NCBI GenBank assembly: GCA_964520615.1
Contig: CAZFNL010000137.1
Coordinates: 84,898 to 148,897, forward strand
Source of the DNA: an uncultured Gammaproteobacteria bacterium
Lineage (GTDB): Bacteria; Patescibacteriota; Microgenomatia; 2-02-FULL-39-11
DNA length: 64,000 nucleotides
Direction: 5' to 3'
Within the stretch, counting starts at the first letter, position 1, and each line of letters opens with the position of its first letter. Shown here one piece after another: positions 1,905 to 21,304 of this stretch. A program made the translations under genes and the position numbers. Under the pieces are notes generated by a model, which was not told the DNA's origin, did not search any database, and was given only the letters and a program-made list of their open reading frames with translations.

Positions 1905-3092
1905 TTAAATTATCTCTTTATAAACATCTTCCGTTCTCTCAACAATTTTATCTATAGAATACTCATTTTTAACCATTCTATTGGCATTTCTCCCGAAATA
2001 ACTGCGGAAATTTTCCCGTTTCAAGATCTCTTCCAAACCCTGTGCTATCTTTTTCGCATTATTATCAACTATTTTGCCCGCGTCGTATTCTATGATTCTG
2101 TCAAAACCTGATTTATCAGATAACAGAAGAGGTAGATTGCAAGCGGCCGCCTCTAACGCGGAAATAGGCATACCCTCAGCGTAGGAAGTCAAAGCAAATA
2201 CATGAGCAGCTGATAAAGCCGCCAGCTTAGCCCTTCCCGTAAGATTACCGGCAAAAATTACCGCTTTTTCCAAACCATTACTCCTTGTTGTCATCTTTAA
2301 GTCGTCCAGATATTCTTTTTTTTCTGCAGGCCCTGCAATCACTAGTTTAATATTGTCTTTTTTATAATGTATATATAATAGTGATTTTATCAGAAGCTCA
2401 ATTCCTTTTTTGGGATGTATCCGTCCAAGAAAAAGAATGACACAATCGTTTTCTTTTAATCCCCATTGACTACGAAATTCAACTTTTTTGGGAAGTTTTA
2501 GGAATAGATTAGCGTCAATACCGTTAGGAATTACTATCACATTTTTCTTATTAATCCCCAATTTCAAATATGATTTTTTCTCTTCCTCTGTCAGGGCGAT
2601 AATTTTTGCCGCTCCCAAAAGGAGTTTTTTGCCGCCAAATTGGTAAAATAACTTTTTCCTTCCTAGATTACCTTCTTTTTCCGACATCTTGGCCGTACCG
2701 TGTCCCGACAATATATAAGGGATGCCCTTTTTTTTTGCCCAAAAAGCCGCCCACAAATGCATTGGGGTATATATTTCATGCATATGGATTATGTCAAAAT
2801 CTGAGATAGTTCTTATAAGTTTAAGGAAAAAAGCTGGCGGGGAAAAAATATGTTTTTTGAAGGCAAGATTTCCGGAAATATTTTTGAAGTAATAAACGCC
2901 AAATCCTTCAATCCTTATTTTTTTATTTGTCTGTGCTTTAATACTATCTGTATCGCTGCCTAAATCAGTAGTAAATACTATCACTTCATGACCATGTTTT
3001 ACCAATTCTCGGCTTAGATTATATACTGCCGTTGCGCTTCCTCCAACTGAAAGAGCTGGAAAAAAGTATGGGACTAATTGAAGAATTTTCAT
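1905..3092 (-). CDS. Glycosyltransferase family 4 (GT-B, Glycos_transf_1).
   Basis: 395 aa. The N-terminus MKILQLVPYFFPALSVGGSATAVYNLSRELVKHGHEV is a GT4 N-domain, and the C-terminal half EGMPISALEAAACNLPLLLS is a retaining GT-B motif. Confidence 0.85.
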   Translation of the reverse strand: MKILQLVPYFFPALSVGGSATAVYNLSRELVKHGHEVIVFTTDLGSDTDSIKAQTNKKIRIEGFGVYYFKNISGNLAFKKHIFSPPAFFLKLIRTISDFDIIHMHEIYTPMHLWAAFWAKKKGIPYILSGHGTAKMSEKEGNLGRKKLFYQFGGKKLLLGAAKIIALTEEEKKSYLKLGINKKNVIVIPNGIDANLFLKLPKKVEFRSQWGLKENDCVILFLGRIHPKKGIELLIKSLLYIHYKKDNIKLVIAGPAEKKEYLDDLKMTTRSNGLEKAVIFAGNLTGRAKLAALSAAHVFALTSYAEGMPISALEAAACNLPLLLSDKSGFDRIIEYDAGKIVDNNAKKIAQGLEEILKRENFRSYFGRNANRMVKNEYSIDKIVERTEDVYKEII

Positions 3093-4798
3093 TTAGTAAT
3101 CAGATAATCTTCCAGTATCATTGCGTCCAGTCCTGAATTTTCAAAAGTGGAAAGAGCAACGTCAGGAGTACCCACTATTGGAAACCCATGCAGGTTAAAT
3201 GAAGTATTAAGGAGTCCCGCAACACCAGTCAGTTTTTTAAATTCGGTCAATATGCCTCTGTAACCGGGATTCCAGTTATCTACCGTCTGCGGTCTACATG
3301 TTCTGTCATATGGATGAAGCCCGGCAACAATCTCGTCTGCTCTTTCTTTTGTGTCGAAAGCCTCAATCATATATCTGGCAGGTTTTTGGTAATCTTTCAA
3401 ATATTTATCTGAATCCTCCTCCAGAATGGAGGCGGCAAAAGGCATCCAAAAATCCCTTTGCTTTATGGCAAAGTTTAATTTTGAAATCACCCGCAAATCT
3501 CTTGGATCAGCCAGAATACTGCGATTACCCAATGCTCTAGGCCCCCACTCGTCCCGGCCGGCAAACCTGGCGACAATTTTACCACTGTTTAACAGTTTAG
3601 CGGTTTCTTTTGCCATCCCCTTCTCCAATTTCACGGCTTTCTTTTTCCATTTTGATTTTTTTAGTAAACTGTCGACTTCTTCAGAGGAATATTTTTGTCC
3701 GAGATACAAATCTCCAAGCGGCTCAACCTCAGCCTTTATTTTCATCTCCTGACACAATCTGACATAACCTTCAATGGCAACCCCGGCTGGAGTCCCGCCG
3801 TCATCAGCTGCCGGATAGAAAAAAGCTTTTTTCACTTCTGGCATTTCCCTTATTACTTTGTTTGCCTTCACATTGAGAAATGAACCTCCGCTTGCGGCCA
3901 CGTTATGCACTCCGGTATGAGCTATTGCATTTTTTACCCATTGTGAAACCAGATCTTCAAAATATTTCTGTGTTGCAAAGGCAATATTGTCAAATCTGCG
4001 CCCGGCAAGAATAGAAGCAAGATTTCTAGTGACATCATATAGATAAGCACCGAAAATATTCTGGAACTCCAGGGGTCTTCCCGGATTTATCCTGATGATT
4101 TTTTTGAATTCATCCATCAGTCCGTCATCCCTGCCGTATGGCGCGAGTCCCATCACCTTGTACTCATGTTCCCAGCGTTTCATCCCGAGGTACCCGGTTA
4201 TCTCACTGTAAATATTGTTGGACAGGCTGTCATAAAATGTCGTTTCGGCAACTCTTTTGATTTTATTATTTTTACCTACTGAAACCGTAGCGGATAACCC
4301 GTCCCCCGACCCGTCCAGTGTAAGAATTAATGTTTCATCCTGAAAACCTGAACCGTAATAAGCGCAGGCGGCGTGGCTCAGATGATGGTCAATAAAAATG
4401 ATTTTTTTCTCCCCAATCCCAAGACTTTCAAATAGATCCTTCAGTCGACCTGTTTGCCTGAACTTATGAAGAAGTTTTACATATGCTTTTGCAAAAAGAT
4501 GTGAATGAAGGTATGGTGCCAGTTCGACCTGAAGCCTTCCCAGCCAGTTGATGTCAGCATATGGTGGACCCACACGGACAAAACAGCCTATGGCGATAAG
4601 GTCGGTTTGCTCAGGCGGTATCCCCGCAATTTCAAAAACTTTGGCAATGGCAAATACCGGCACGCCGGAATAATTCTTTATGTTATTCAGCCTCTCCTCG
4701 GATATGGCTGAAAGTATTTTCCCGTCACGAAGGAGTGCCGCCCCCGCATTGTGCCCGTCATGAATACCCAAAACAGTAAGATGATTTTTCTTATCCAT
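3089..4798 (-). CDS. Carbamoyltransferase, NodU/CmcH (HypF-like) family.
   Basis: 569 aa. The N-terminus LTVLGIHDGHNAGAALLRDGKILSAISEERLNNIK is typical of NodU/CmcH O-carbamoyltransferases, and the length fits the family. It overlaps the downstream GT4 by 4 nt. Confidence 0.85.
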   Translation of the reverse strand: MDKKNHLTVLGIHDGHNAGAALLRDGKILSAISEERLNNIKNYSGVPVFAIAKVFEIAGIPPEQTDLIAIGCFVRVGPPYADINWLGRLQVELAPYLHSHLFAKAYVKLLHKFRQTGRLKDLFESLGIGEKKIIFIDHHLSHAACAYYGSGFQDETLILTLDGSGDGLSATVSVGKNNKIKRVAETTFYDSLSNNIYSEITGYLGMKRWEHEYKVMGLAPYGRDDGLMDEFKKIIRINPGRPLEFQNIFGAYLYDVTRNLASILAGRRFDNIAFATQKYFEDLVSQWVKNAIAHTGVHNVAASGGSFLNVKANKVIREMPEVKKAFFYPAADDGGTPAGVAIEGYVRLCQEMKIKAEVEPLGDLYLGQKYSSEEVDSLLKKSKWKKKAVKLEKGMAKETAKLLNSGKIVARFAGRDEWGPRALGNRSILADPRDLRVISKLNFAIKQRDFWMPFAASILEEDSDKYLKDYQKPARYMIEAFDTKERADEIVAGLHPYDRTCRPQTVDNWNPGYRGILTEFKKLTGVAGLLNTSFNLHGFPIVGTPDVALSTFENSGLDAMILEDYLITK

Positions 4799-4990: not shown

Positions 4991-5770
4991 ATGAAGACAA
5001 TCATACTCTGCGGAGGAACAGGTACCAGGCTTAAAGAAGAAACGGAATACAAGCCAAAACCGATGATAAACGTCGGCGGCAAGCCCATCATTTGGCATAT
5101 CATGAAAATATACGCCCACTGGGGCTTCAATGAGTTTATTCTGGCGCTGGGCTATAAGGCCAACTATATCAAGGACTTTTTCCTCAACCAGAAAGCTTTT
5201 ACCACAGACTTTACACTAGAAACAAAAACACACAAAACTTCCTACCACTGGGAGCATAGAAAAGAAGTGGATGATTTCAAAATCACATTTGTCGATACCG
5301 GCATGGATACTCTTCCGGGAGAAAGGATTCTTCTCTGTGAGAGCTACATCCCCAAAAGCGATAAGGATTTTATGGTGACATACGGCGACGGCGTGACGGA
5401 TCTTGATATCGTAAAACTTGTGAAGTTCCACAAGAAACAAAACACAATAGGAACCATAACCGGAATCCATCCCAAATTTAAGTTTGGAGTGGTAAAAGTA
5501 GGAAACAACAATAAGATACAGGAGTTTAAGGAAAAACCATACATGTCTGATTGGGCAAACGGAGGATATATGGTTTTCAAGAGGGATTATTTCAAATACC
5601 AGAAGCCGAAAGAATTGGAACACGCCGCTCTTGCCCGCCTAGCCAAAATTTCACAGCTCTCCATTTACAAACACACAGGTTTCTGGTTTGCTGTCGACAC
5701 TAACAAAGAATATGACCAACTGAACGGCATCTGGGAAAGCGGCAATCCGCCGTGGAAAGTATGGAAGTGA
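4991..5770 (+). CDS. rfbF: Glucose-1-phosphate cytidylyltransferase.
   Basis: 259 aa. MKTIILCGGTGTRLKEETEYKPKPMINVGGKPIIWHIMKIYAHWGFNEFILALGYKANYIKDFF is the canonical RfbF/DdhA N-terminus, and the length is typical. Confidence 0.9.
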   Translation: MKTIILCGGTGTRLKEETEYKPKPMINVGGKPIIWHIMKIYAHWGFNEFILALGYKANYIKDFFLNQKAFTTDFTLETKTHKTSYHWEHRKEVDDFKITFVDTGMDTLPGERILLCESYIPKSDKDFMVTYGDGVTDLDIVKLVKFHKKQNTIGTITGIHPKFKFGVVKVGNNNKIQEFKEKPYMSDWANGGYMVFKRDYFKYQKPKELEHAALARLAKISQLSIYKHTGFWFAVDTNKEYDQLNGIWESGNPPWKVWK

Positions 5771-5774
5771 AATT

Positions 5775-5812
5775 TGGTTATGGGTTGTCGGTTGTGAGTT
5801 GTGAGTGTATTT
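5775..5812. repeat. Heptanucleotide tandem repeat (GGTTGTG-type), 4-5 copies, in the intergenic region after rfbF.
   Basis: ggttatg ggttgtc ggttgtg agttgtg agtgtat, followed by a T6 run. Confidence 0.6.
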
Positions 5813-5860
5813 TTTAGTTCCAACTTTTCTAATTTCTGAAATCTAGAATCTATTTTAATT

Positions 5861-6898
5861 ATGCCGAATAAATACAGAAACATTCTCGTCACCGGTGCCA
5901 CAGGCTTTGTCGGCTCCCACCTGACAGAAGAACTAGTAAAAACAGGAGCAAAGGTTACTGCCACCACTCACCATCCTGTAGCGCGCAATTCCTATTTTGC
6001 CTCAAAGCATCTCGGACGAAAAACAAAAGTGGTACAAATAGAACTGGCTGACTATAAATCAGTTGGAAAGCTGATTTCAGAAACAAAATCTGACTGTATT
6101 TATCACCTGGCCGCCCAACCTGTAGTCGATACAGCTTTCCGGGATCCTAAAGCAACACTATATTCAAATATAGTCGGTACGATAAACCTTCTTGAAGCGG
6201 CAAGAAGATACGGCAAAACCCGAGCAATTGTCATCGCTTCATCGGACAAAGCGTACGGGAAAATGGAACCGGGAATGATGAATAATGAATTAAGAATAAT
6301 GAATACAAAAAAAAATAACTACCAACGACCAACTGCCAACCACCAACTAAAATATATTGAATCCGATCCTCTTCGCGGCGATCATCCCTATGAAGTCTCA
6401 AAATCCTCAGCAGACCTTATCTCCTATTCTTATTTTAAGACTTACGGCCTTCCGGTAACCATTACCCGCTTCGGCAATATTTACGGGGAAGGCGACACGC
6501 ATTTCTCCCGGATCATTCCGGGTATCATGGAGGCAATTGTGAAAAAGAAAACATTTCCTATAAGAAGCAACGGCAAATATATCCGTGACTATCTTTATGT
6601 CAAAGATGTCGTCAGGGGATATATGCTTTTGGCCCAAAATATAGGAAAAACAAAAGGAGAAGCGTACAATTTCGGCTCGGATGAATCGTTGAGTGTAGTA
6701 GATCTGATCAGCCTTCTGGAAAAAGTATTGAAAATAAAGATAAAATATAAGATTCTGGATATAGCCAAAAACGAAATCCCCTACCAGTCGCTGGACTGGA
6801 CCAGAATCAGAAAAACCCTCGGCTGGAAACCCCAATATTCTTTTGCGGATACTGCAAAAAATATTTACCTGTGGTACGCAGGATATTTTCGATCTTAA
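5861..6898 (+). CDS. rfbG: CDP-glucose 4,6-dehydratase-like enzyme (extended SDR) carrying an in-frame insertion of about 26 aa.
   Basis: 345 aa. It has the Rossmann motif VTGATGFVGSHL, then HLAAQPVV, SDKAYGK, the catalytic PYEVSK, and GYMLLAQ. It is adjacent to rfbF. The insertion reads MEPGMMNNELRIMNTKKNNYQRPTANHQLK between the SDK and YxxxK motifs, where RfbG normally has about 15 aa. Confidence 0.7.
   Translation: MPNKYRNILVTGATGFVGSHLTEELVKTGAKVTATTHHPVARNSYFASKHLGRKTKVVQIELADYKSVGKLISETKSDCIYHLAAQPVVDTAFRDPKATLYSNIVGTINLLEAARRYGKTRAIVIASSDKAYGKMEPGMMNNELRIMNTKKNNYQRPTANHQLKYIESDPLRGDHPYEVSKSSADLISYSYFKTYGLPVTITRFGNIYGEGDTHFSRIIPGIMEAIVKKKTFPIRSNGKYIRDYLYVKDVVRGYMLLAQNIGKTKGEAYNFGSDESLSVVDLISLLEKVLKIKIKYKILDIAKNEIPYQSLDWTRIRKTLGWKPQYSFADTAKNIYLWYAGYFRS
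6278..6345. repeat. Intragenic heptamer arrays (ATGAATA x4, then an A9 tract, then ACCAACN x4). These are reverse-orientation relatives of the two intergenic heptamer repeats.
   Basis: atgaata atgaatt aagaata atgaata c aaaaaaaaa taact accaacg accaact gccaacc accaact. The reverse complement resembles the repeat at 4877-4938 and the repeat at 5775-5812. Confidence 0.55.
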
Positions 6899-6901
6899 AA
6901 C

Positions 6902-7846
6902 TCAATTCTTTCTCCTGTGATCATTTATTATCCTCTCGATTATATATGTAGGCCGTTGCTTCACTTCTTCAAAGATTATCTGTATATATTTCCCCAAAAT
7001 ACTGATAGCCAACATCTGCGCTCCGCCGAAAAAGACAATAGAAAGAAGAATGGGGATTTGCGCCCTGATGGGATTACCAATCAGCAATACAGTAAATAAA
7101 TACAATAAAAGAAAAATAAAAGAAAGTAATGTCAGAAAAAATCCTAAAGTTGTCATAACATCCAAAGGTATGAATGTAAATCCAAGAAGTCCCCTTTGAG
7201 AATCTCTAATGTAATCGAAAAATGTATTCTTGCTTCTACCATACTTTCTTGCGGCTCTTTCGTATTCTACTTTGGCTACACGAAAACCTACCCATGCTCT
7301 CAAGCCTCTAAAAAAACGGTTCCTTTCCGGTAAATCATTTATTACATCCAATACTTTCCTATCCAATAGACAAAAACTTCCAGCCTCAAGAGGCATATCG
7401 ATATTTGAAAGTCTTTTAAAAACTAAGTAAAAGGATTTTCTGATTATTGTCATAACCGGAGTATCGTTGATTTTTTTCCTGACTCCGATTACGACCTGAG
7501 CTCCTTTTTCCCACTCATTCACAAACCTTAAAATTATATCGGGAGGATCCTGAAGGTCGCAATCAACTATTGTTAGCGCGTCCCCGATAGCATGCTTCAT
7601 CGCCGCTTGTGAGGAATATTCGGAAGTGAAATTGCGTGACATAAAAAGCGCGGTTGCTTTTTTGTCATTCCGGCAAATTTTTTTTATCACTTCTCTTGAC
7701 TTGTCCAAACTGGCATTATCCGCAAACACTATCTCATAATCATATTTGCCCAATTTCTTCATCGTTTTTACTATTTCTCCATATGCATAGGAAATATTAT
7801 CCTCCTCATTGTAAGTAGGGACTATGATGGATATAGTTTTTTTCAT
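6902..7846 (-). CDS. GT2 polyprenyl-phosphate sugar synthase (GtrB/ArnC/DPM1-like) with a C-terminal 2-TM anchor.
   Basis: 314 aa. ISIIVPTYNEEDNISYAYGEIV..YEIVFADNASLDKS is a GT-A motif with DxD. The C-terminus FIPLDVMTTLGFFLTLLSFIFLLLYLFTVLLIG..ILLSIVFFGGAQMLAISILGKY forms the two TM helices characteristic of GtrB/ArnC. Confidence 0.8.
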   Translation of the reverse strand: MKKTISIIVPTYNEEDNISYAYGEIVKTMKKLGKYDYEIVFADNASLDKSREVIKKICRNDKKATALFMSRNFTSEYSSQAAMKHAIGDALTIVDCDLQDPPDIILRFVNEWEKGAQVVIGVRKKINDTPVMTIIRKSFYLVFKRLSNIDMPLEAGSFCLLDRKVLDVINDLPERNRFFRGLRAWVGFRVAKVEYERAARKYGRSKNTFFDYIRDSQRGLLGFTFIPLDVMTTLGFFLTLLSFIFLLLYLFTVLLIGNPIRAQIPILLSIVFFGGAQMLAISILGKYIQIIFEEVKQRPTYIIERIINDHRRKN

Positions 7847-8643
7847 TGACGGGGAAACTTAAAACTGATTCTTTTCTGGAGCATTTTTAACCTTTTATCA
7901 TCCTCATGACATATTCTCTCGTAATAATTATTCTTATTCCTCAGCCAAAGCAGTTCAAATTCATTGGCAAGTATTATGCCTTCTTCGATTTTTCCGGAAT
8001 TTCTGGTGGTTTTGAAAACTATTTTCCGGGTTTCGTAATAATCAAGAAGTCCTTTCCGGACTAATTTTTGGATAAAAGGTATGGCTTCTTTGGCAATTCC
8101 GCCGCCCATTGCTGTTTTTAAACGCTTTTTTTTAACCTGCTCAAACATATCTTCGGCAATCTTATACATTCCGGGACTATTTATTTCCTCCCGAGAAATA
8201 CCAAGAGATCCGGACATATCCACCCGACCAAGCGTAATCTTCCCAATAAGTTCTAAATTAGGGGAACGTAATATCTCTTTTAGATTCTGGTAGGCCGTGT
8301 AAGTTTCAATATTTACTCCAAAAATTATCCTCTTCATGAGATCTTCCGGGAAATGATAATTTATTGCCTCAAGAAATTTTTTCATGGCATACGCGCTCTC
8401 TACCATAGGAGCAACAAGTCCCGTTACTCCTATATGCTGCGCTTCAAACATGTCGGTGATCGCTTCAGCACCGCCGATTTTCAATACAATTCCCAATTCG
8501 GCTTTCTCAGCAATATCTTTCAATCTCATTGCCTCATGTATTCTGACCGCCTCTGCTTCAAACTCAGCTTTCACTTCACAAACTCCATAACTCTTTTTCA
8601 TTTTTTTAAGCAATAAAACCATTTCCAGTTCCAAATCCTTCAT
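7843..8643 (-). CDS. HpcH/HpaI aldolase or PEP/pyruvate-utilising TIM-barrel family protein (tentative).
   Basis: 266 aa. Motifs GLVAPMVESAYAMKKF, GVNIETYTAYQNLKEIL and ITLGRVDMSGSLGI resemble HpcH/citrate-lyase-beta signatures. I cannot confirm this without a search. Confidence 0.4.
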   Translation of the reverse strand: MKDLELEMVLLLKKMKKSYGVCEVKAEFEAEAVRIHEAMRLKDIAEKAELGIVLKIGGAEAITDMFEAQHIGVTGLVAPMVESAYAMKKFLEAINYHFPEDLMKRIIFGVNIETYTAYQNLKEILRSPNLELIGKITLGRVDMSGSLGISREEINSPGMYKIAEDMFEQVKKKRLKTAMGGGIAKEAIPFIQKLVRKGLLDYYETRKIVFKTTRNSGKIEEGIILANEFELLWLRNKNNYYERICHEDDKRLKMLQKRISFKFPRQ

Positions 8644-8691
8644 TTTATCCTCCTTTGATAAATCATTCGGTTATTATATCGTGTATGCCTA

Positions 8692-9795
8692 TTATATTAG
8701 AAACATCCTGATGATGTCCAAAAAATTACCTAGGTCTTTCTCCAGTTCATCCGCGGTATAATCGGTAATTTTTACCAGAGACATATTTCCCTTCGGCAAT
8801 ACCAAGACCATTTTTTCCGATACTTTTTTCTTGTCCTTATTCATTCCCGAAAGTATGTGACCTTGTATAAAATTTTTTCCGTCAATTTTTAGATTGTCCA
8901 ATTTCAATAAAGGGAAAAAAATATCATCGTTTATCCGTATATTCAGCTTTTTTGACAACCAGCCTTTTCTTACACTTACGCTGTTGGCATAAATCATACC
9001 CAGTAACACTCCTATCCCGTGGGATACGCTAAAGTTTGAAGCAGATTCCAAAGCATGCCCCAGCTCATGTCCGTAATTTAAAAGATTCCGCCTGCCATGA
9101 TCAAACTCATCATTTTCCATATAACTTAATTTTATCCTTATGCAATCTTTTATTATTTCCTCTATATTTTTTTTATCAAAGAAGGACAAAACCTTTTTCA
9201 GTCTTGAGGATATTTCTTCTAACCTGCTTTGCGCGTTTTTATCCATCAAGAGCAATTTAGCAATTTCTCCCATTCCGTTGATAATATCCATCTTTTTCAG
9301 TGTTTTTAAAAATTCCGTATCTATATATATAAAATCCGGCGGGTAAAAAGTACCGATAACATTTTTATACTTATTAAAATTTAGAGATGTTTTTAATCCG
9401 ACGGCACTGTCTGCTTGTGCAAGAAGAGTAGTCGGTATATATATCCAATGGACTCCCCTGTATAAGGTTGAGACGCAATATCCTACTATATCCTGGTTTA
9501 TTCCCCCGCCAAAAGATATCACCGTCAGATTTTTTTTATACGGAAGAGGTAATAGCCATTTATAGATTTTTTCTACTGTCCTTAATGTTTTTCCGCTTTC
9601 GTCAAGTTCTAAAACTAAAAGCTTGCTTTTTTGGAATTTATCAAAAATCCTATTTTTATAAAAACCATAAACTACATTCCCGCAAATTATAACGGAATTC
9701 GGGATATTTTGGAGGTCATCCAAATACTCAAAATTATTTGAGAACCGGACGGTAAAATTTTTTATTGGAGATGTGATGAGAATGTCGCCGTTCAT
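8692..9795 (-). CDS. 3-Dehydroquinate synthase-like sugar-phosphate cyclase (DHQS superfamily).
   Basis: 367 aa. FGGGINQDIVGYCVSTLYRGVHWIYIPTTLLAQADSAVGLKTSLNF..KNVIGTFYPPDFIYID matches the DHQS core, and NYGHELGHALE matches the metal-binding His pair. Confidence 0.75.
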   Translation of the reverse strand: MNGDILITSPIKNFTVRFSNNFEYLDDLQNIPNSVIICGNVVYGFYKNRIFDKFQKSKLLVLELDESGKTLRTVEKIYKWLLPLPYKKNLTVISFGGGINQDIVGYCVSTLYRGVHWIYIPTTLLAQADSAVGLKTSLNFNKYKNVIGTFYPPDFIYIDTEFLKTLKKMDIINGMGEIAKLLLMDKNAQSRLEEISSRLKKVLSFFDKKNIEEIIKDCIRIKLSYMENDEFDHGRRNLLNYGHELGHALESASNFSVSHGIGVLLGMIYANSVSVRKGWLSKKLNIRINDDIFFPLLKLDNLKIDGKNFIQGHILSGMNKDKKKVSEKMVLVLPKGNMSLVKITDYTADELEKDLGNFLDIIRMFLI

Positions 9796-10466
9796 TTGGC
9801 AATAAATCCTCCGTCAATGGGAAGTACGGATCCGGTAATATAAGTATTTTTTTCTGAAACGAGAAAAGAAACCAATTCAGCAATTTCCGCAGCAAACGCA
9901 AATCTTCCCAACGGTATGTCTCCGGCTATTTCCGCATTCTTCCGCGGGGAATTTCTGCCTGTTAAATCAGTAAGGGTAAAACCGGGACACACTGAATTAA
10001 CCAATATATTAAAAGGTGCCAGTTCCAAAGCTAATGCTCTTGTCATACCGTTTATACCGTGCTTTGACGAAGCGTATAAAACCTGTTTGCCCCTTGCGAC
10101 AATTCCAAATATGGAGCTTACGTTTATTATTCTTCCCCATTTTTGCTTTTTCATATACCCAACAACAGAGTTTGCCAAATAAATCGGGGTGATGAGGTTG
10201 ATTCTTAATGTATCCTCTATATTTTTTTTATCCAGTTCTCCTAAATACTGAGGCTGATTTATGCCGGCGTTATTGATCAGTATATCTATCTTCTGACTTC
10301 TTAATTTATTAATATATATTGAAACGGATTGTTCATCGGACAGATCCAGTTCTCCTCTGGATGGCGTTATCAGCAAATATCCCTCTTCTTCAAGTTTTCC
10401 CCTGATTGCTTTGCCTATTCCTCTTGATGCACCGGTCAGAAGAACTGTTCTTTTATTATTATTCAT
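9792..10466 (-). CDS. Short-chain dehydrogenase/reductase (classical SDR).
   Basis: 224 aa. It has TGASRGIGKAI, NNAGI and the catalytic YASSKHG (YxxxK). Confidence 0.85.
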   Translation of the reverse strand: MNNNKRTVLLTGASRGIGKAIRGKLEEEGYLLITPSRGELDLSDEQSVSIYINKLRSQKIDILINNAGINQPQYLGELDKKNIEDTLRINLITPIYLANSVVGYMKKQKWGRIINVSSIFGIVARGKQVLYASSKHGINGMTRALALELAPFNILVNSVCPGFTLTDLTGRNSPRKNAEIAGDIPLGRFAFAAEIAELVSFLVSEKNTYITGSVLPIDGGFIAK

Positions 10467-10471
10467 AAATC

Positions 10472-11398
10472 TTATTGTTCCTTTATTTTAATTTTTCCCA
10501 AATAAGGATCTTTTATTACCATTTCTTTATCAATCATGCCTAAATTTTTTTTATACCAATTATATAAACTTCTTATCCCCTCCGCCAAAGATATCGGTTT
10601 GAAGTCCGGAATTTCCTTCTTCAGCCGCGAAATATCAGCAGTGTATTCCAGATTCATGCCTTTATGCAATATATTGATATCCGATCCGTAATCACTGGCA
10701 GAATTTATAAGCTCAGCAATTTCTACAAGATCTGTTTTTCCTCCGCTTCCTATATTATATACTTTATATTTCGGCTCATGATTGATGAAATAGCTTACTA
10801 TTTTTACCAGATCGTCAATATATAAATAGTCAAATACAACATTCTGGCCTATTTTAATCTCCTGCTTTAAAAGGTTTTTTACAATTGAATTTGATATAAA
10901 CTTAAAAAGATAGTTTTCATATTTCCCGTAGACGCCGAAAAGTCTAAGACAATATATTTTTTCTGATTTTAGCGCAAAGCTGGAACAGACAAATTTATAA
11001 AAGCCGTAATCATCCTTGGGTACCCGCTTTCCGAATTCTTTCTCGCTTATATTTACCAAAGCCCGGCTTTTATCATATTCCGCACCCGATCCGAAATATA
11101 TAAACTTTTCGATTAAATCTTCGCATAAAACAAGATTTATAAAAATCCGCAGATTTACTTCTACGACATTTTTATAATTTCGCGAATCTCTTCCTCCTCC
11201 GGCATTTGCACAATGCAGAATAATTTGAATTTTATTCTTTTTTATAAACTCTCTTAACCGGGAAGAATCCTTATAGTCAAAATCACTATGAGAGGGAGCC
11301 AATATATCAAATTTATCGCTTAAAAATTCCTTTATGTTTTTGCCTATAAAGCCCGATCCGCCTGTCAAAAAAATTTTCTTTTTCACTTTTCCTCCCAA
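10472..11398 (-). CDS. NDP-4-keto-6-deoxyhexose reductase-like enzyme (RmlD/RfbJ/RfbS-like extended SDR).
   Basis: 308 aa. It has the short Rossmann motif IFLTGGSGFIGKNI and a YGxxK region (FGVYGKYENY). It sits next to the ThDP enzyme and the CDP-sugar genes. Confidence 0.55.
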   Translation of the reverse strand: MGGKVKKKIFLTGGSGFIGKNIKEFLSDKFDILAPSHSDFDYKDSSRLREFIKKNKIQIILHCANAGGGRDSRNYKNVVEVNLRIFINLVLCEDLIEKFIYFGSGAEYDKSRALVNISEKEFGKRVPKDDYGFYKFVCSSFALKSEKIYCLRLFGVYGKYENYLFKFISNSIVKNLLKQEIKIGQNVVFDYLYIDDLVKIVSYFINHEPKYKVYNIGSGGKTDLVEIAELINSASDYGSDINILHKGMNLEYTADISRLKKEIPDFKPISLAEGIRSLYNWYKKNLGMIDKEMVIKDPYLGKIKIKEQ

Positions 11399-13224
11399 AG
11401 CGGTATAAGCATATTGCTTTTAAATTCATCACGGGGCAAAAACGGACCCATGTCTTCAAGCGCAGGAGAAACAAACTGCCCGTTGGGTAATTTCCTGGCC
11501 ATCAGTTTAGGATTAAGCGTCAGATTTTTGACAGAGTTTATGACACATACCATCGGGCCTTTACTTTTTAATACATTTTGGATTTTCCTTTTCATATCAC
11601 TATGATTATTTATCTCTATAGCCGGTAATCCATAAGCTTTTGCCACTTTTATAAAATCCGGACAGCTCACTCCAGATTTTTTGTCTACCGCCACGTGTCT
11701 GCCCTCAAACAGATTGTCTTGGGTATTTCTTATGGATTGGTATCCGTCATTATCATAAATAAAAAGCTTTATGGGTAGCCGGTGATGCTTCATCACCTGT
11801 AATTCATGAATATTAAGTTGTATACTGCCGTCACCTTCAAAACAGATAATTCTTTTATTTTTTCCGGAGGCAAAAGCAGCTCCTACTGCCGCAGGCAATC
11901 CGTATCCCATTTGGGCGCAACCGTTGTTCAGAACTATACGCTGTTTGTTCCTGACCCAAAATGCCTGGTATGAACAATTAAGAGGTCCTACACCGTCAGA
12001 AAGTACTATTATTTCGCCTTCGTCAAGCATCGAGCTGATTGTTTCAATAAAACAATAAGGATTTACTGCGTTCTTCTCTTTCCAATACTCAGGTAAAACT
12101 GTTTTATATTTTCGATTAAGCTTTCTCCCGTAGTCCATCCATTTGTTAATCACCAATTTAAAATTCTTCTTGTTTAATTGCTTTATCATTTCAACAATAA
12201 ATTCTTTCGCGTCAACATTTATCTTCAGGTCAGGTGACAATATTGGTTTATCTGTTTCCTTTCTATCAATATCAACCATCACGTGATATGCTTCCCTGGC
12301 AAAAGCCTTATAAGTAAATCCTATAGTCCGAATATCCAACCGTGCTCCGATAGACAGCAGAAAATCACTGTTTTGCAGGATGAAATTGGCAGCTCTTTGC
12401 CCGAAAGCGTGTCCCCTGCCGAAAAAATATTTATTATCAGAAGGAATCAAATCGTATCCGGCATAACTTGTCAGTACCGGAATTTTCAGGAGTTCAACCA
12501 GCTTTAAAAATTCTCCGGCAGCTGCCGACAGCCGGATGCCGTTGCCCGCATACAGAACCGGGCGTTTGGAATGGCTTAATCTAAATATGGTTCGTGAAAC
12601 CAGCTTCGACAAAAGTAGTTTTTTATCATCTTCTGAAGGCAATTTCAGTTCTTCACCAGGAACAAATCTCTTTAACTTTCCTTTTTCTATATACCAACCT
12701 TGTATATCCAAAGGTATATCAAGCCAAGCCGGACCCGGCCTGCCTGATTTTGCCATATATACGGCCTTCTCCAGATGATATCTGATATCATCCGGCTTCA
12801 GGACTGTCACGGCATATTTTGTAATCGGCTTTACCATGTCAATGATATTTATTTCCTGATCTCCCAATTGCCGGGATATTTTTCCTGCCCCCATAGTTTC
12901 TCTTTTTACTTGTCCGGATATTATCAGCATGGGAATGGAATCAAGCCAGCCGCCAAGGACTCCCGTAATCGCATTGGTTCCTCCGGGCCCTGTGGTCACA
13001 AGACACACGCCCAAATTCCCTGAAATCCTCGCGTAAGCTTCCGCGGCTGTGGCACAAGCTTGTTCGTGATAGTTGCAGATATATTTCAGTTTTCCTGCTT
13101 TTCCTATAGAATCAACAAGGTGAATATTTCCGCCGCCTGATATAAGAAAAATGTGGTTTACTCCCAAATTTTCGATGAAACTGATAATGTAATCAGATAA
13201 CTTTATTTTAACCATGGCACTCAA
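11383..13224 (-). CDS. ThDP-dependent acetolactate-synthase-like enzyme, a candidate YerE-type NDP-4-ketosugar two-carbon branching enzyme.
   Basis: 613 aa. The TPP_enzyme N-domain is NHIFLISGGGNIHLVDS..CLVTTGPGGTNAITGVLGGWLDSIPMLIISGQV. The C-terminal ThDP motif is EGDGSIQLN..YDNDGY. There are no ilvN or ilvC neighbours, and it is embedded among CDP-deoxysugar genes. Confidence 0.75.
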   Translation of the reverse strand: MSAMVKIKLSDYIISFIENLGVNHIFLISGGGNIHLVDSIGKAGKLKYICNYHEQACATAAEAYARISGNLGVCLVTTGPGGTNAITGVLGGWLDSIPMLIISGQVKRETMGAGKISRQLGDQEINIIDMVKPITKYAVTVLKPDDIRYHLEKAVYMAKSGRPGPAWLDIPLDIQGWYIEKGKLKRFVPGEELKLPSEDDKKLLLSKLVSRTIFRLSHSKRPVLYAGNGIRLSAAAGEFLKLVELLKIPVLTSYAGYDLIPSDNKYFFGRGHAFGQRAANFILQNSDFLLSIGARLDIRTIGFTYKAFAREAYHVMVDIDRKETDKPILSPDLKINVDAKEFIVEMIKQLNKKNFKLVINKWMDYGRKLNRKYKTVLPEYWKEKNAVNPYCFIETISSMLDEGEIIVLSDGVGPLNCSYQAFWVRNKQRIVLNNGCAQMGYGLPAAVGAAFASGKNKRIICFEGDGSIQLNIHELQVMKHHRLPIKLFIYDNDGYQSIRNTQDNLFEGRHVAVDKKSGVSCPDFIKVAKAYGLPAIEINNHSDMKRKIQNVLKSKGPMVCVINSVKNLTLNPKLMARKLPNGQFVSPALEDMGPFLPRDEFKSNMLIPLWEEK

Positions 13225-13297
13225 CTTCCCAGAATTAATTGGATAAAAAAACTTCCTTACTGCATCAATAGTGTTTCTGGTATTATAATACGTTATT

Positions 13298-14356
13298 GTG
13301 GTTAATAAAAAGTCAAGAAATTGCCCAATCTGTAATTACCAATCAAATTTTCCCATTTTTACCCAGAAGTTTGCCGGCGGGCTTGAACATAAAATCGTAG
13401 TATGCGATAACTGCGGTTTCGTATTTGTAAAATATACATACGACCGGAAAACAGCTAACAAACATTATAAAAAAAATTCAAAATATAATCACGGCCGGGA
13501 TGAAAATCTGCATGAAATATACGCAAAAATTATACAGCAATATTGTCCTCCAACCTCTAAGATACTTGACGTAGGCTGTTCAGACGGACATTTATTGTAT
13601 CTTTTAAGACAAAAGGGTTTTAAGAGCCTTGATGGTTTTGATCCCAGCCCTCAATGCCAAATAGCCGCATCTAGAAAATACAAAATAAAAATACGAACGG
13701 CCGAACTCTACTCTTTTGACACCCGGAGAAAATACGATATTATTATTCTTGCCCAAGTTTTAGAACATCTGGTTGATATAAAACAGGCAATTCAAAAACT
13801 TTCTTCAATACTTTCCGGAAATGGCTACTTTTTTATCGCCTTGCCTGATGCAGATAATTTTTATAAGGATTTCGAAGAACCTTTCTATGAATTCTCTCTT
13901 GAGCATATTAATTTTTTTGGTGTTTCTGCCCTTCACGCTCTCATGCATGACTTTCAGCCTATCCATTTCACCTCGGACGGTAAAGTAATTTTTTCCCTTT
14001 GGCAAAAAAGCGGAGGTGTCAGGAATTCACTAAAAAAATATATCCGGCTGTCAAAGGCAAAAATGGCCAGGATAAACAGAGTAATCGACAATTGCCCTGA
14101 CAGATTAATAGTCTGGGGAGCCGGATCGCTCACGGAAAGGCTTTTCACTTCCACAAAACTTGCCCAGAAAACTATCAAATTAGCAGACAGAAACTTGAAT
14201 TTGGCGGGTAAAAAGCTGATAGGAATAGAGATCATCCCTCCGGAAAAGCTCCGAAGCTATAAAGAACCGGTACTCATATCCTCATTCCGCTTTAAGGACG
14301 AGATTCTCAAGGATATAAAAAAAATGGGTATAAAAAATAAAATAATTACGTTTTGA
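13298..14356 (+). CDS. NDP-sugar C-methyltransferase-like protein (TylCIII/NovU architecture): Zn-ribbon, class-I SAM methyltransferase, then a C-terminal Methyltransf_14-like domain. It has a GTG start.
   Basis: 352 aa. CPICNYQ..CDNCGFVF is a Cys4 ribbon. LDVGCSDGHLL and IIILAQVLEHL form the SAM fold. The C-terminus LIVWGAGSLTERL..IGIEIIPPEKL..VLISSF resembles the C-methyltransferase C-terminal domain. Confidence 0.7.
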   Translation: MVNKKSRNCPICNYQSNFPIFTQKFAGGLEHKIVVCDNCGFVFVKYTYDRKTANKHYKKNSKYNHGRDENLHEIYAKIIQQYCPPTSKILDVGCSDGHLLYLLRQKGFKSLDGFDPSPQCQIAASRKYKIKIRTAELYSFDTRRKYDIIILAQVLEHLVDIKQAIQKLSSILSGNGYFFIALPDADNFYKDFEEPFYEFSLEHINFFGVSALHALMHDFQPIHFTSDGKVIFSLWQKSGGVRNSLKKYIRLSKAKMARINRVIDNCPDRLIVWGAGSLTERLFTSTKLAQKTIKLADRNLNLAGKKLIGIEIIPPEKLRSYKEPVLISSFRFKDEILKDIKKMGIKNKIITF

Positions 14357-14369
14357 AATCAATAAACAT

Positions 14370-15071
14370 TTATTTTGCAAAGCGTAAAAGAAGAATGCCT
14401 ACCAGATTTCTAAAGGCAATTGATGGAATTTTATCTAGTGTATAGACTTTTGTCTTATCACCACGTTGAGTCTTACGGTGATGTATCGGTATTTCATTTA
14501 TGGATAATTTAGCTTTAATAGCCACAGCTATAAAACCCCACCAAAACCCTTCATTTAAATAAGAAAGATACTTTGTGTAAGATAAGATTGCCCTCCTCTT
14601 GAATAAAACAAAAGGAGCGGATGGATCGTGTATTGATGCAGAAAAAAGTAATTTATAGATTATTCGGAAAAAAAGAGAAAAAACTTTTCTTTGTAGAGGA
14701 TCGGACCTTCTCCGTCTCCAACCTATCAGTATGTCTGCCGACATTCTCTTCTTCCAAAACTTGGGAAAATCTTCCGGATTGCATTGGCCGTCAGAATCGA
14801 CACAAAGTAAAAACTCTGACTGTGCGGACTTTATACCATCCAATACTGCACTACCGTAACCTCTCCTTTTCTTTTTCTGATTGAGGCTAATAGGATAATT
14901 CAATTTTAGTTTTTTTAATAATTCTTTTGTTCCATCAGTTGAACCATCCTCGCAAATTATGAAATTGAAACGGATTTTGTTTTTATCGAGAAAAATTTTC
15001 CATTCCGAAAGGACATATTCTATAACTTCTTTTTCATCATACACAGGCAAAATTATTGATAGTGAACTCAT
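14370..15071 (-). CDS. Glycosyltransferase family 2.
   Basis: 233 aa. LSIILPVYDEKEVIEYVL..ICEDGSTDGTKELL and CVDSDGQ (DxD). Confidence 0.75.
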   Translation of the reverse strand: MSSLSIILPVYDEKEVIEYVLSEWKIFLDKNKIRFNFIICEDGSTDGTKELLKKLKLNYPISLNQKKKRRGYGSAVLDGIKSAQSEFLLCVDSDGQCNPEDFPKFWKKRMSADILIGWRRRRSDPLQRKVFSLFFRIIYKLLFSASIHDPSAPFVLFKRRAILSYTKYLSYLNEGFWWGFIAVAIKAKLSINEIPIHHRKTQRGDKTKVYTLDKIPSIAFRNLVGILLLRFAK

Positions 15072-15135
15072 CTTAATGTAAAATCAATTTCTTTATATAA
15101 TTGTCATGTATTATAATACAAAGTTAATATAATCT

Positions 15136-16386
15136 ATGCCTTCCGATATATCATTTGTCCCGGGAAAGACTTATATTCCAGCCTCTGGGAAAGTATTTGG
15201 CGAAAACGAAATAGAAAATGCCGTATCAGCCGCCCGTGAGGGATGGTGGACGGAAGGTCATTTTGCCAAAGAATTTGAAAAGGAATTCTCCCGCTTTTTG
15301 GGCGTGCGCTACGTTTCACTGGTCAACTCCGGCTCCAGTGCCAATCTGACCGCTTTATTTTCCCTGACTTCGAGAGTTTTTGGAGAAAGAAGTTTGAAAA
15401 GAGGCGATGAATTTATTACAGGAGCTGTCGCCTTCCCCACAACCGTCAATCCCGGCATCATCTTTGGTATGACACCGGTCTTTGTGGATGCTGATCTTTC
15501 TTCTCTTAATATTAATACGGAAAAAATTGAAAAAGCCATCACCAAAAAAACAAAACTTATTATGGCAGCCCACACCCTAGGCAACCCCTATAATCTGGAT
15601 AAAATAGTGGCACTAGCCAAAAAATACCATCTATGGTTGATTGAGGACTGCTGTGATGCCTTGGGAAGCCGTTATGAAGGGAAACTTGTGGGAACATATG
15701 GCGATATATCCACATTCTCCTTTTATCCTGCTCACCAGATTACCATGGGTGAAGGCGGAGCAGTCGTTACCAATAACCCCCTTATCCACCGCTCCATACG
15801 TCAATTCCGCGACTGGGGCAGGGACTGCTGGTGCGATACAGGAAAGGATGATACTTGCGGCAAGCGGTTTGGTTGGAAAATGGGAGAACTGCCCGCAGGT
15901 TACGACCATAAATATATCTACTCCCAGATAGGTTTTAACCTGAAACTTACGGATTTCCAGGCGGCAATCGGCCTGGCACAACTTCAAAAATTGCCGCAAT
16001 TTATAAAAAAAAGGAAAGAAAATTATAAAGAACTATTTAAATTCTTTCGAAGATATAATAAGTTTTTTGAGCTTCTTACAACAACAGATAAAGAAGATCC
16101 TTGCTGGTTTGGCTTTCCTCTTCTTGTCAAGAAAGACGCACCGTTTACCAGAAATCAGCTCACAGAGTATCTGGAAAAAGAAAAAATAGGTACCAGAAAT
16201 GTCTTTTCAGGAAACCTTCTTCGGCACCCGGCATATCTGAAAATAAAATACAGGACTGCAGGAAAGATTGTCAACGCAGATCACGTGATGAACAGGGCAT
16301 TCTGGTTGGGAGTTTTTCCAGGAATAAATTTTGAGATGATAGAATATATCAAAAAGACTATCGAAAAATTTCTTAAAAGATTCTGA
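15136..16386 (+). CDS. ddhC: CDP-6-deoxy-L-threo-D-glycero-4-hexulose-3-dehydrase (E1; DdhC/RfbH/AscC-like), of the DegT/DnrJ family.
   Basis: 416 aa. FYPAHQITMGEGG has His where aminotransferases have the Schiff-base Lys, which is the E1 hallmark. The cysteines in IEDCCDALG..(57 aa)..DCWCDTGKDDTCGK form C-X57-C-X1-C-X7-C, the E1 [2Fe-2S] motif. Confidence 0.85.
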   Translation: MPSDISFVPGKTYIPASGKVFGENEIENAVSAAREGWWTEGHFAKEFEKEFSRFLGVRYVSLVNSGSSANLTALFSLTSRVFGERSLKRGDEFITGAVAFPTTVNPGIIFGMTPVFVDADLSSLNINTEKIEKAITKKTKLIMAAHTLGNPYNLDKIVALAKKYHLWLIEDCCDALGSRYEGKLVGTYGDISTFSFYPAHQITMGEGGAVVTNNPLIHRSIRQFRDWGRDCWCDTGKDDTCGKRFGWKMGELPAGYDHKYIYSQIGFNLKLTDFQAAIGLAQLQKLPQFIKKRKENYKELFKFFRRYNKFFELLTTTDKEDPCWFGFPLLVKKDAPFTRNQLTEYLEKEKIGTRNVFSGNLLRHPAYLKIKYRTAGKIVNADHVMNRAFWLGVFPGINFEMIEYIKKTIEKFLKRF

Positions 16387-20976: not shown

Positions 20977-21304
20977 TCAACTCCTTCATAGCCAGCTTTT
21001 GTACTAACTTTGTCAGTTCATGACGTAAATCCTGAAGATAAACATAAAGCCTGAAAACAAGATAAAAAAGAAGTACAATTGAAGCGTAAATAACAAGATC
21101 TACTCCACGGCCTATACCCAAAATCCTTGCGATATCCCCAGAAATGGATGGATAAATGATGATTGCCAAAGCAGACCCGAAAAGCAAAACCCAAAATATA
21201 AACCCAAAAAATGTTACTTCTCCACTTCTGAAGCGTAAGAAAACACGCGACAAGGCAAATAGAACAAAAATACTTAAGATCGCTTGTGTAAATACTAAAT
21301 GCAT
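20939..21304 (-). CDS. Small 3-4 TM membrane protein, DUF2304-like GT2 partner.
   Basis: 121 aa and hydrophobic. It sits directly between two GT2 genes, an arrangement typical of DUF2304 proteins. The family call is from memory. Confidence 0.4.
   Translation of the reverse strand: MHLVFTQAILSIFVLFALSRVFLRFRSGEVTFFGFIFWVLLFGSALAIIIYPSISGDIARILGIGRGVDLVIYASIVLLFYLVFRLYVYLQDLRHELTKLVQKLAMKELNGKNEKKSSSQN

Follow-up and report, generated by a model that had tools for sequence, protein, structure and literature searches.

Three genes at positions 7843-10466 of a 64,000-nucleotide (nt) stretch of bacterial DNA from contig CAZFNL010000137.1 (this whole stretch is called the window below) encode a short-chain dehydrogenase/reductase (SDR), a homologue of dehydroquinate synthase (DHQS) and an aldolase-like protein. 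We consider it fairly probable that the three proteins are the side-chain-building module of an operon for a branched sugar of the caryophyllose type. The three open reading frames (ORFs) are intact, all lie on the minus strand and together span exactly this region. The genes are genuine, yet they are the middle part of a larger six-gene operon (13224-6902, minus strand) and not a self-contained unit. In the order of transcription the operon reads as follows (aa, amino acids; ThDP, thiamine diphosphate; GT2, glycosyltransferase family 2):

11383..13224, minus strand: YerE-like ThDP-dependent carboligase, 613 aa, first gene of the operon (Pfam TPP_enzyme_N/M/C)
10472..11398, minus strand: extended-SDR NAD(P)-dependent reductase, 308 aa (Pfam Epimerase, 88.6 bits)
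9792..10466, minus strand: classical SDR ketoreductase, 224 aa (adh_short, 144 bits; TGASRGIG, NNAG and S...YxxxK)
8692..9795, minus strand: 367-aa protein of the DHQS family, probably a divergent TIGR04425 member (Pfam, NCBIfam and neighbour-joining tree)
8644..8691, minus strand: intergenic spacer of 48 nt without overlap, with the Shine-Dalgarno sequence AAGGAGGA ahead of the ATG of the aldolase-like gene, as read from the sequence
7843..8643, minus strand: homologue of HpcH/HpaI-like class II (metal-dependent) pyruvate aldolases, 266 aa (Pfam HpcH_HpaI)
6902..7846, minus strand: 314-aa GT2 enzyme, putatively of the polyprenyl-phosphate type, encoded by the final gene of the operon (Pfam Glycos_transf_2)

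The ThDP gene and the gene for the 308-aa reductase overlap by 16 nt, and the latter stops 5 nt ahead of the SDR gene. The SDR and DHQS-like genes share an ATGA, a 4-nt overlap, and a second ATGA overlap of 4 nt joins the aldolase-like gene to the GT2 gene. A sequence-only reading of the window had recognised the three ORFs and the SDR correctly, and had overlooked the ThDP enzyme and the reductase directly upstream of them. It had placed the DHQS-like gene downstream of the aldolase-like gene and upstream of the SDR gene, which is reversed, as the minus strand is transcribed in the order SDR, DHQS-like, aldolase-like. Its statement that all three genes are joined by 4-nt overlaps holds for the SDR/DHQS-like junction but not for the DHQS-like/aldolase-like junction, where the 48-nt spacer lies. 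A sigma-70-like match at the end of the DHQS-like gene (TGGACA-18-TATAAT, 11/12, 8720-8691, minus strand), the best in the operon, is possibly an internal promoter that serves the aldolase-like and GT2 genes; in the promoter scan, the region as a whole had as many such matches as shuffled controls, with no excess.

Sequence comparison identified the upstream 613-aa protein as a YerE-like ThDP enzyme. Its best solved structure was 8rph, with 440 bits over the full length versus 260 bits for the best acetolactate synthase (AHAS), and it carries a GDG...NDG motif. The structure 8rph is that of JanthE, a characterised YerE-like lyase (PMC12188165). The enzyme in the window would graft a decarboxylated keto acid onto C-4 of a CDP-4-keto sugar. 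Steitz et al. (2022) put forward a 'unifying scheme for acyl-branched sugars', proposed and partly demonstrated, which covers the caryophyllose of Mycobacterium marinum (PMC9306805). In this scheme a pyruvate aldolase yields a 2-keto acid with functional groups, which is decarboxylated and added to CDP-4-keto-3,6-dideoxyglucose by a YerE-like enzyme, and a YerF-like reductase completes the branch (PMC9306805). From its position in the operon and from this scheme (PMC9306805), we propose that the 308-aa reductase is a YerF-like enzyme acting on the C-1' ketone of the branch; its relatives in the PDB are dTDP-4-dehydrorhamnose reductase and GDP-fucose synthase.

The M. marinum locus offered the closest comparison with a known system. 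The product names assigned there by the Prokaryotic Genome Annotation Pipeline (PGAP), taken from the supplement of a transcriptome study (PMC12395582), are:

MMAR_2327: GT87
MMAR_2329: DHQS-family protein
MMAR_2331: protein of the aldolase/citrate lyase family
MMAR_2332: ThDP-binding protein
MMAR_2333: protein of glycosyltransferase family 2
MMAR_2334: cytidylyltransferase for glucose 1-phosphate
MMAR_2335: RfbH
MMAR_2336: CDP-glucose 4,6-dehydratase

By these names, MMAR_2329-2336 has the same composition as the locus in the window, with a GT-C enzyme nearby, which answers the earlier remark that no characterised operon of this composition could be recognised. The logic also appears to be the same, with an aldolase that leads to a keto acid, a YerE-like coupling and a reductase to finish the branch. 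Deletion of MMAR_2331, 2332 or 2333 abolishes caryophyllose (PMC5706390, PMC9306805), the side chain of which is acyclic and ends in a methyl group (PMC5706390). In all known C12 sugars of this class, a methyl group terminates a C6 side chain (PMC5706390, PMC9306805, PMC9092360). The two loci differ in gene order, and the window, which comes from a low-GC genome and has its closest related loci in metagenome-assembled genomes (MAGs) of the candidate phyla radiation (CPR)/Microgenomates, has far more polyprenyl-phosphate-dependent GT-C genes. No Mycobacterium was present among the best 120 of at least 5909 matches to an aldolase-like query from Coriobacteriia, nor among 10 GC-rich representatives of the 50%-identity clusters of the aldolase-like family, all of which bore names of MAGs or metagenomes. 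The accessible literature assigned no role in the caryophyllose pathway to the DHQS-family protein or to an SDR, and we found in it no explanation for the origin of the terminal methyl group or of the unusual aldehyde/keto-acid precursor. The cluster type is already known, and the window adds to it a member from a genome that probably belongs to the CPR.

The genes for a CDP-sugar acceptor flank the operon in the window:

4991..5770, plus strand: 259-aa protein resembling glucose-1-phosphate cytidylyltransferase, convergent with the operon (TIGR02623, 257 bits; cut-off 300)
5861..6898, plus strand: CDP-glucose 4,6-dehydratase-like protein, 345 aa (TIGR02622, 199 bits; cut-off 278; Pfam GDP_Man_Dehyd and Epimerase)
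15136..16386, plus strand: RfbH/E1, CDP-6-deoxy-L-threo-D-glycero-4-hexulose 3-dehydrase, 416 aa (NF011936, 633.9 bits, above the cut-off of 423)

The CDP-glucose pathway, RfbH, the YerE-like enzyme, the reductase and the aldolase are thus co-localised within 4991-16386, a combination that recurs in dozens of loci, and we propose that RfbH provides the 3,6-dideoxy-4-keto acceptor. The YerE/YerF pathway to yersiniose A and the ErwE and JanthE systems resemble this arrangement, as they combine a YerE-subclass ThDP carboligase with CDP-glucose, RfbH and reductase genes. However, YerE uses pyruvate and requires no aldolase, and the erwiniose cluster has an aldolase/dehydrogenase pair of the BphI/BphJ type, whereas the window has a distant HpcH/HpaI relative together with a DHQS homologue and an SDR.

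The aldolase-like protein was marginal by sequence, with 28.4 bits against Pfam HpcH_HpaI (cut-off 25). An AlphaFold (AF2) model built with 20 family members as input was confident (pLDDT 89.8), and the top Foldseek matches were the HpcH/HpaI aldolases 3qz6, 4b5w and 7et8 and SbnG (4tv5), at E ~1e-8, TM ~0.6 and identity ~16%; pyruvate kinase barrels came next. The model therefore supports an HpcH/HpaI TIM-barrel fold, as had been suspected from the sequence, and not an unrelated one. When aligned to E. coli YfaU with hhalign (probability 89%), E113 and D142, both invariant in the family, fell on YfaU E153 and D179, which we take to be the Mg ligands. The fold and the two acidic metal-binding residues are thus shared with class II aldolases such as HpaI and YfaU (RhmA), while the low identity, the marginal Pfam score, the unaligned N-terminal half and the family's own invariant motifs (KAEFEAE, LKIGG, GRVD and ETRK) set the family apart from them. 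The proposed product is a 2-keto-3-deoxy acid phosphate, and the genomic association with a 2-keto-acid-consuming enzyme agrees with a role as an aldolase.

Two other assignments were discarded. Residues 16-86 of the aldolase-like protein (window 8388-8598) gave a weak family-profile match to glycerol dehydrogenases (5zxl, E = 2.4e-4), but kinship was rejected since the model is a TIM barrel; the match, across 'GG.E...APM.ES', is probably a local beta-alpha-beta 'GGxE' resemblance. A phosphonate pathway, in which a phosphoenolpyruvate mutase would work with a phosphonopyruvate decarboxylase and an alcohol dehydrogenase of group III, was dropped because the barrel resembles HpcH rather than phosphoenolpyruvate mutase, the ThDP enzyme is YerE-like over its full length and the 367-aa protein belongs with DHQS instead of the iron-dependent alcohol dehydrogenases.

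The aldolase-like family is large, with at least 5909 clusters at 90% identity and 208 clusters at 50% identity (E <= 1e-30), and it was found in at least 541 species genomes with conserved synteny; the size of the family and the conserved synteny show that these ORFs are not due to chance. The window proteins were compared by tblastn with 80 distinct loci, of which 45 had at least 5 kb and 57 at least 3 kb on both flanks. The cassette recurs in CPR (Gottesman-, Levy- and Roizmanbacteria), Saccharibacteria, Elusimicrobia, Bacteroidales, Spirochaetes and Desulfobacterota-type MAGs, and also in cyanobacteria (Microcystis), Geobacteraceae, Firmicutes (Effusibacillus), Vampirovibrio and Actinobacteria (Coriobacteriia), and identity of the aldolase-like proteins across phyla was 55-76%. 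The ThDP gene accompanied the aldolase-like gene in 42 of the 45 loci and in 54 of the 57. The SDR and the DHQS-like gene were both present in 31 of the 45 loci and both absent from 12; the other 2 loci had just one of them. These counts suggest that the aldolase and the ThDP enzyme are the core of the cassette, with the SDR and DHQS-like genes as a tight, optional two-gene module. A homologue of the 308-aa reductase was found in 31 of the 45 loci, and one of the glucose-1-phosphate cytidylyltransferase in many related loci. As the family extends over at least 541 species genomes in many phyla, CPR/Microgenomates included, branched sugars may be common surface components. The long acyl-branched sugars, among them caryophyllose, aurantose and the sugar of Rhodopseudomonas palustris, are antigenic surface components, with a pathway that is only partly assigned.

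All ORFs of the 80 loci were clustered. A gene for a phosphatase of the haloacid dehalogenase (HAD) family was found within 3 kb of the aldolase gene in 8 of 19 loci without the SDR and DHQS-like pair, versus 1 of 38 loci with the pair (57 loci). HAD phosphatase genes lay directly beside the aldolase-like gene, with the pair absent, in L026, L029, L037, L044, L045 and L050 (loci as numbered in our comparison), and further such loci were L055, L062, L068, L074, L078 and L082. The two types of loci were interspersed on the aldolase tree. The aldolase of L044, of the HAD type, was 94.5-96% identical to those of L040 and L046, which have the SDR and DHQS-like genes, and eight further pairs of aldolases from the two types were 70-85% identical. 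In L044, the HAD gene (6137-6907) and a 363-aa ORF fill the slot that is held by the SDR and DHQS-like genes in L040. A swap beside near-identical aldolases is most simply read as a sign that the aldol product is phosphorylated and loses its phosphate by hydrolysis or by elimination. On the same reading, the HAD route would leave a CH2OH group, and beta-elimination of the DHQS type followed by ketoreduction would leave CH3-CHOH. Sister loci with a HAD phosphatase in place of the pair are a natural control for this step.

The 367-aa protein is a true member of the DHQS family. It matched Pfam DHQ_synthase (PF01761, 116 bits) and DHQS_C (PF24621, 94 bits), contained all core motifs that had been pointed out from the sequence (GGGINQDIVG, of the NAD-binding GGG..D..G pattern, RGVHWIYIPTTLLAQADS, KNVIGTFYPP and GHELGHALE) and is not a glycerol or glycerol-1-phosphate dehydrogenase. 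Its putative metal ligands E177, H243 and H259 align with E184, H247 and H264 of E. coli AroB. The best NCBIfam model was TIGR04425, a hypothetical equivalog named 'AroB-related putative sugar phosphate phospholyase (cyclizing)', which led the next family by 100 bits with a score of 347.8 bits, below its cut-off of 400. Orthologues from the same cassette exceeded this cut-off in Microcystis (468.6 bits), Effusibacillus (403.5 bits) and Bacteroidales (400.7 bits), and they share one clade with the window protein. The 52 cassette proteins formed one clade in a neighbour-joining tree (bootstrap 91/100), apart from every reference: four AroB proteins, one protein annotated as DOIS (the synthase of 2-deoxy-scyllo-inosose), three 'sedoheptulose 7-phosphate (SH7P) cyclases' and one gene like that of desmethyl-4-deoxygadusol synthase (DDGS), adjoining an O-methyltransferase. 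The DOIS, SH7P and DDGS references are PGAP-annotated plasmid genes and not biochemically characterised enzymes.

An alternative early route to shikimate or quinate, composed of a non-canonical synthase for 3-deoxy-D-arabino-heptulosonate 7-phosphate (DAHP), a DHQS and a quinate-type dehydrogenase that lie in the glycan island by chance, would account for an AroB-type active site. CPR genomes often lack standard pathways, and a pyruvate aldolase acting with erythrose 4-phosphate would yield an isomer of DAHP. Nevertheless, we regard this as highly improbable. The clade is separate from AroB, the window protein scored only 245 bits against the aroB model (TIGR01357, cut-off 305), and no dehydroquinase, shikimate dehydrogenase or later shikimate gene was found nearby in the domain scans of ORFs. 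The DHQS-like gene is also embedded among ThDP, RfbH and GT2 genes even where a normal shikimate pathway is expected, and M. marinum has a separate AroB, MMAR_2177.

All 14 active-site positions of DHQS that were compared are identical to AroB in 52 of the 52 family members. At the positions that discriminate the subtypes (K250, R264, N268, H275 and K356 in the numbering of the Aspergillus nidulans DHQS) the residues were:

AroB and the TIGR04425 clade (the window protein and 52/52): K-R-N-H-K
DOIS-annotated reference: K-G-E-H-N
SH7P-cyclase and DDGS-like references: M-(A/K/D)-(D/A)-P-(L/W/V/S)

The family thus carries the fingerprint of AroB and not that of DOIS or of EEVS (the synthase of 2-epi-5-epi-valiolone) and DDGS. 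It shares the superfamily, the fold and a role outside the shikimate pathway with DOIS, EEVS, 2-epi-valiolone synthase (EVS) and DDGS, but differs from them in the fingerprint residues. Among PDB entries, ValA (90 bits) and DDGS (84 bits) also scored below AroB (142 bits). The equivalents of K250, R264 and K356 are kept in the family and are replaced across the DOIS-annotated and SH7P-cyclase references taken together, which argues for a substrate with both a carboxylate and a phosphate. The residues of the pocket argue for a DAHP-like substrate and not for glucose 6-phosphate or sedoheptulose 7-phosphate, and so speak against a product of the 2-deoxy-scyllo-inosose, 2-epi-5-epi-valiolone or gadusol type. 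We propose that the protein is an NAD+- and metal-dependent phosphate-lyase acting on a DAHP-like 3-deoxy-2-ulosonate phosphate. The family shares its Pfam domains with AroB and presumably also the chemistry, in which a 3-deoxy-2-ulosonate phosphate undergoes NAD+/metal-dependent oxidation, loss of the phosphate by elimination, and reduction. In contrast to AroB, the family is found in glycan clusters, has an SDR partner and is interchangeable with a HAD phosphatase, and its predicted product is an acyclic 7-deoxy keto acid instead of dehydroquinate.

The same pocket could serve for ring closure. In that case the DHQS homologue would cyclise the DAHP-like acid made by the aldolase to a dehydroquinate-like ring, and the SDR would reduce this to a quinate-like cyclitol acid, which would be joined to the glycan or fused with it. 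Another possibility is that the ring would close on the side chain after the ThDP coupling, as in sugars of the caryose or bradyrhizose type. The identity of all 14 catalytic positions to AroB and the words 'phospholyase (cyclizing)' in the name of the NCBI family agree with this, and DHQS chemistry is believed to reach the carbocycle largely unaided after the loss of phosphate. The biosynthesis of caryose and bradyrhizose is also unknown (PMC9092360, PMC4743980). We nonetheless think that a carbocycle is unlikely. A dehydroquinate-like product would be an alpha-hydroxy acid and unusable as a ThDP donor, and yet the aldolase is tied to the ThDP enzyme in nearly all loci. The cassette has no conserved ligase, kinase or additional nucleotidyltransferase for the activation of a cyclitol, and the exchange of the pair for a plain HAD phosphatase beside aldolases that are up to 96% identical is hard to square with ring formation. 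Moreover, M. marinum has the same gene content and makes a lipooligosaccharide with the acyclic caryophyllose and no carbocycle (PMC5706390). The sequence-only reading had favoured a cyclitol, such as 2-deoxy-scyllo-inosose, 2-epi-5-epi-valiolone or a product of the bradyrhizose type. This is disfavoured by the AroB pattern and because the partners are a YerE-like carboligase that requires a 2-keto acid and genes for a CDP-3,6-dideoxy-4-ketohexose. The less favoured half of that proposal, a higher-carbon or branched sugar for the neighbouring glycosyltransferases, matches the evidence. A link to bradyrhizose itself found no support, as the paper on this sugar leaves the genes of its 11-gene cluster undescribed and mentions neither dehydroquinate nor an aldolase nor thiamine.

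We tentatively suggest, as a reading that may quite possibly be correct, that the TIGR04425 clade is not a cyclase and that together with the SDR it forms a terminal-deoxygenation module, interchangeable with the HAD phosphatase, that converts CH2-O-phosphate to CH3-CHOH. The SDR would then reduce the ketone that remains once the phosphate is eliminated; among NCBIfam models it is FabG-like, under every cut-off. This suggestion is new as far as we can tell, and no description of a role for the TIGR04425 protein or its SDR partner was found in the searched literature. If true, the module supplies the 6'-deoxy side chain of caryophyllose-type sugars, and our data nominate the DHQS-family protein and the SDR for the terminal-methyl step. 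It would also mean that AroB chemistry was recruited with an unchanged active site and halts before the aldol ring closure, and that C12 sugars with long branches are surface components found widely outside mycobacteria and proteobacteria, in CPR bacteria too. An acyclic product from an unchanged DHQS site would bear on how much of the DHQS reaction is catalysed by the enzyme.

From these families and their conserved association we infer the following substrates and order of steps. The HpcH-like class II aldolase would first join pyruvate and an aldose phosphate, most likely erythrose 4-phosphate, to give a DAHP-like 3-deoxy-hept-2-ulosonate 7-phosphate. The DHQS homologue would then, by transient oxidation with NAD+, beta-elimination of the phosphate and re-reduction, produce a 7-deoxy-6-keto acid, and the SDR would reduce the C-6 ketone to give 2-keto-3,7-dideoxyheptonate. 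Next, the YerE-like enzyme would decarboxylate this acid and add it to C-4 of CDP-4-keto-3,6-dideoxyglucose, the acceptor that would be made by the flanking cytidylyltransferase, 4,6-dehydratase and RfbH. Reduction of the C-1' ketone of the branch by the 308-aa reductase would yield a CDP-3,6-dideoxy-4-C-(tetrahydroxyhexyl)hexose. Finally, the GT2 enzyme would transfer the sugar to polyprenyl phosphate, and this donor would serve the numerous GT-C enzymes of the island. In three loci, for example at L004:4665-5525 in an Acidobacteria MAG, a transaldolase/FSA-family gene stands directly upstream of the cassette's ThDP gene and is possibly a dedicated supply of erythrose 4-phosphate. In biocatalysis, such a pathway would add defined, functionalised donors for YerE-like carboligases.

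The steps could also take place in another order. The DHQS homologue and the SDR may precede the aldolase, for instance by converting erythrose 4-phosphate to a 4-deoxy-tetrose, or they may follow the ThDP coupling and act on a phosphorylated side chain bound to the CDP-sugar. Steitz et al. propose pyruvate and a free aldehyde (compound 28) for the aldolases of M. marinum and R. palustris (PMC9306805), and the gene order in CPR (SDR, DHQS-like, aldolase) is compatible with the pair acting first; activity after the reduction of the C-1' ketone would remove the risk of cyclisation. We nevertheless consider a different order improbable. The equivalents of K250 and R264 are invariant in 52 of 52 proteins and lost in the DOIS-annotated and SH7P-cyclase references, which have substrates without a carboxylate, and this invariance argues for a 2-keto-acid phosphate as the substrate. 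In addition, the order in most phyla is aldolase, SDR, DHQS-like.

Several points weigh against the proposed side-chain pathway. Its main weakness is that the active site of the DHQS homologue, as far as its residues tell, is indistinguishable from that of AroB and is compatible with a cyclised, dehydroquinate-like product. In AroB, the ring opening and the aldol step are thought to need little catalysis. The binding of the carboxylate by K250 and R264 of DHQS is an assumption that we take from the structural literature and that finds support here only in the replacement of these residues in the DOIS-annotated and SH7P-cyclase references, and the choice of aldose phosphate is guessed from the C6 side chains of the known sugars. 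In the aldolase-like protein, the N-terminal half did not align to YfaU in hhalign or hmmsearch and the catalytic arginine by which the pyruvate enolate is stabilised (R70 of HpaI, R74 of YfaU) was left unmapped; by the Pfam register its position lands near the invariant K55 of LKIGG, a lysine and not an arginine. The window and MMAR_2329-2336 were matched only by gene content and product names, and the PGAP data gave no name for MMAR_2330. The association between the HAD gene and the absence of the pair (Fisher p = 3.3e-4) is uncorrected for shared ancestry. No biochemical data on TIGR04425 members or on this aldolase subfamily were found in the searched literature. Lastly, RfbH normally requires an E3 partner, and no E3 reductase (AscD/FNR type) was detected in the window by tblastn with an FNR-like protein from a related locus or by domain scans of ORFs. 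An E3/FNR-type gene was present in just 8 of the 57 related loci, and the partner may be encoded elsewhere.

Beside these loci, some variants of the cassette were seen. Two tandem paralogues of the aldolase-like protein, ~40% and 44% identical to the window protein, are present in L058, L061, L063, L067, L068 and L073, where they have the ThDP gene on one side and the SDR or GT2 gene on the other; these loci are mostly labelled delta proteobacterium/Syntrophobacterales, and L068 is an Omnitrophica MAG. The Roizmanbacteria loci L016 and L019 have an aldolase-like gene with two ThDP enzymes (53-54% and 42% identical to that of the window) and no SDR or DHQS-like gene. A 249-aa protein with a metallo-beta-lactamase (MBL) fold recurs in the cassettes of L025, L030, L060, L062, L072, L075 and L077, and its gene in L060 (6454-7203) is found directly upstream of that for the ThDP enzyme. 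The Ilyobacter polytropus plasmid pILYOP01 encodes a homologue with 34% identity to the aldolase-like protein (L087, 11947-12720), in an organic-acid rather than a glycan context, next to genes for aconitate hydratase, an isocitrate/isopropylmalate dehydrogenase-family protein, PrpF, a 2-hydroxyacid dehydrogenase and a 2-hydroxycarboxylate transporter. This context fits keto- or hydroxy-acid chemistry. A homologue on a Novosphingobium plasmid, in a record without annotation, has cytidylyltransferase-, dehydratase- and GT2-like genes nearby and no ThDP or DHQS-like gene close to it; both plasmid homologues are uninformative about the pathway in the window.

The GT2 protein at the end of the operon scored below the cut-offs of its best NCBIfam models, PgfS (222 bits against 500) and ArnC (132 bits against 529), two polyprenyl-phosphate glycosyltransferases, and has two C-terminal hydrophobic segments in its sequence. 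Among the 57 related loci, a homologous GT2 gene was present in 39 and a gene for a GtrA-like membrane protein in 23. In tblastn searches, the window had no homologue of the GtrA-like protein, the HAD phosphatase or the MBL-fold protein of the related loci.

The surroundings of the operon confirmed the glycan-island setting that had been noted from the sequence. The window is a very large glycan island with many GT2 and family 4 (GT4) glycosyltransferase genes throughout, a Wzx-like flippase, a carbamoyltransferase, two YfhO-like proteins and a PTPS-related membrane protein, and its GT-C array is an unusually dense set of enzymes that depend on polyprenyl-phosphate sugars. Features outside the operon and its CDP-sugar genes were:

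13298..14356, plus strand: S-adenosylmethionine-dependent methyltransferase, 352 aa, divergent from the operon (Pfam Methyltransf_23, 77 bits)
16411-42416, 52740-54116 and 61900-63393, minus strand: at least nine PMT_2-type GT-C paralogues of 460-620 aa, several in tandem
3089-4798, minus strand: NodU/CmcH-type carbamoyltransferase, 569 aa, adjoining a GT4 gene
20939-21304, minus strand: small DUF2304 membrane protein, between two GT2 genes

The methyltransferase, which has a homologue in 6 of the 45 related loci, is a possible tailoring enzyme, and its membership in the pathway is uncertain. A putative branched-sugar cluster of R. palustris likewise has a methyltransferase (PMC9306805). The carbamoyltransferase suggests that an O-carbamoylated sugar is part of the same glycan.

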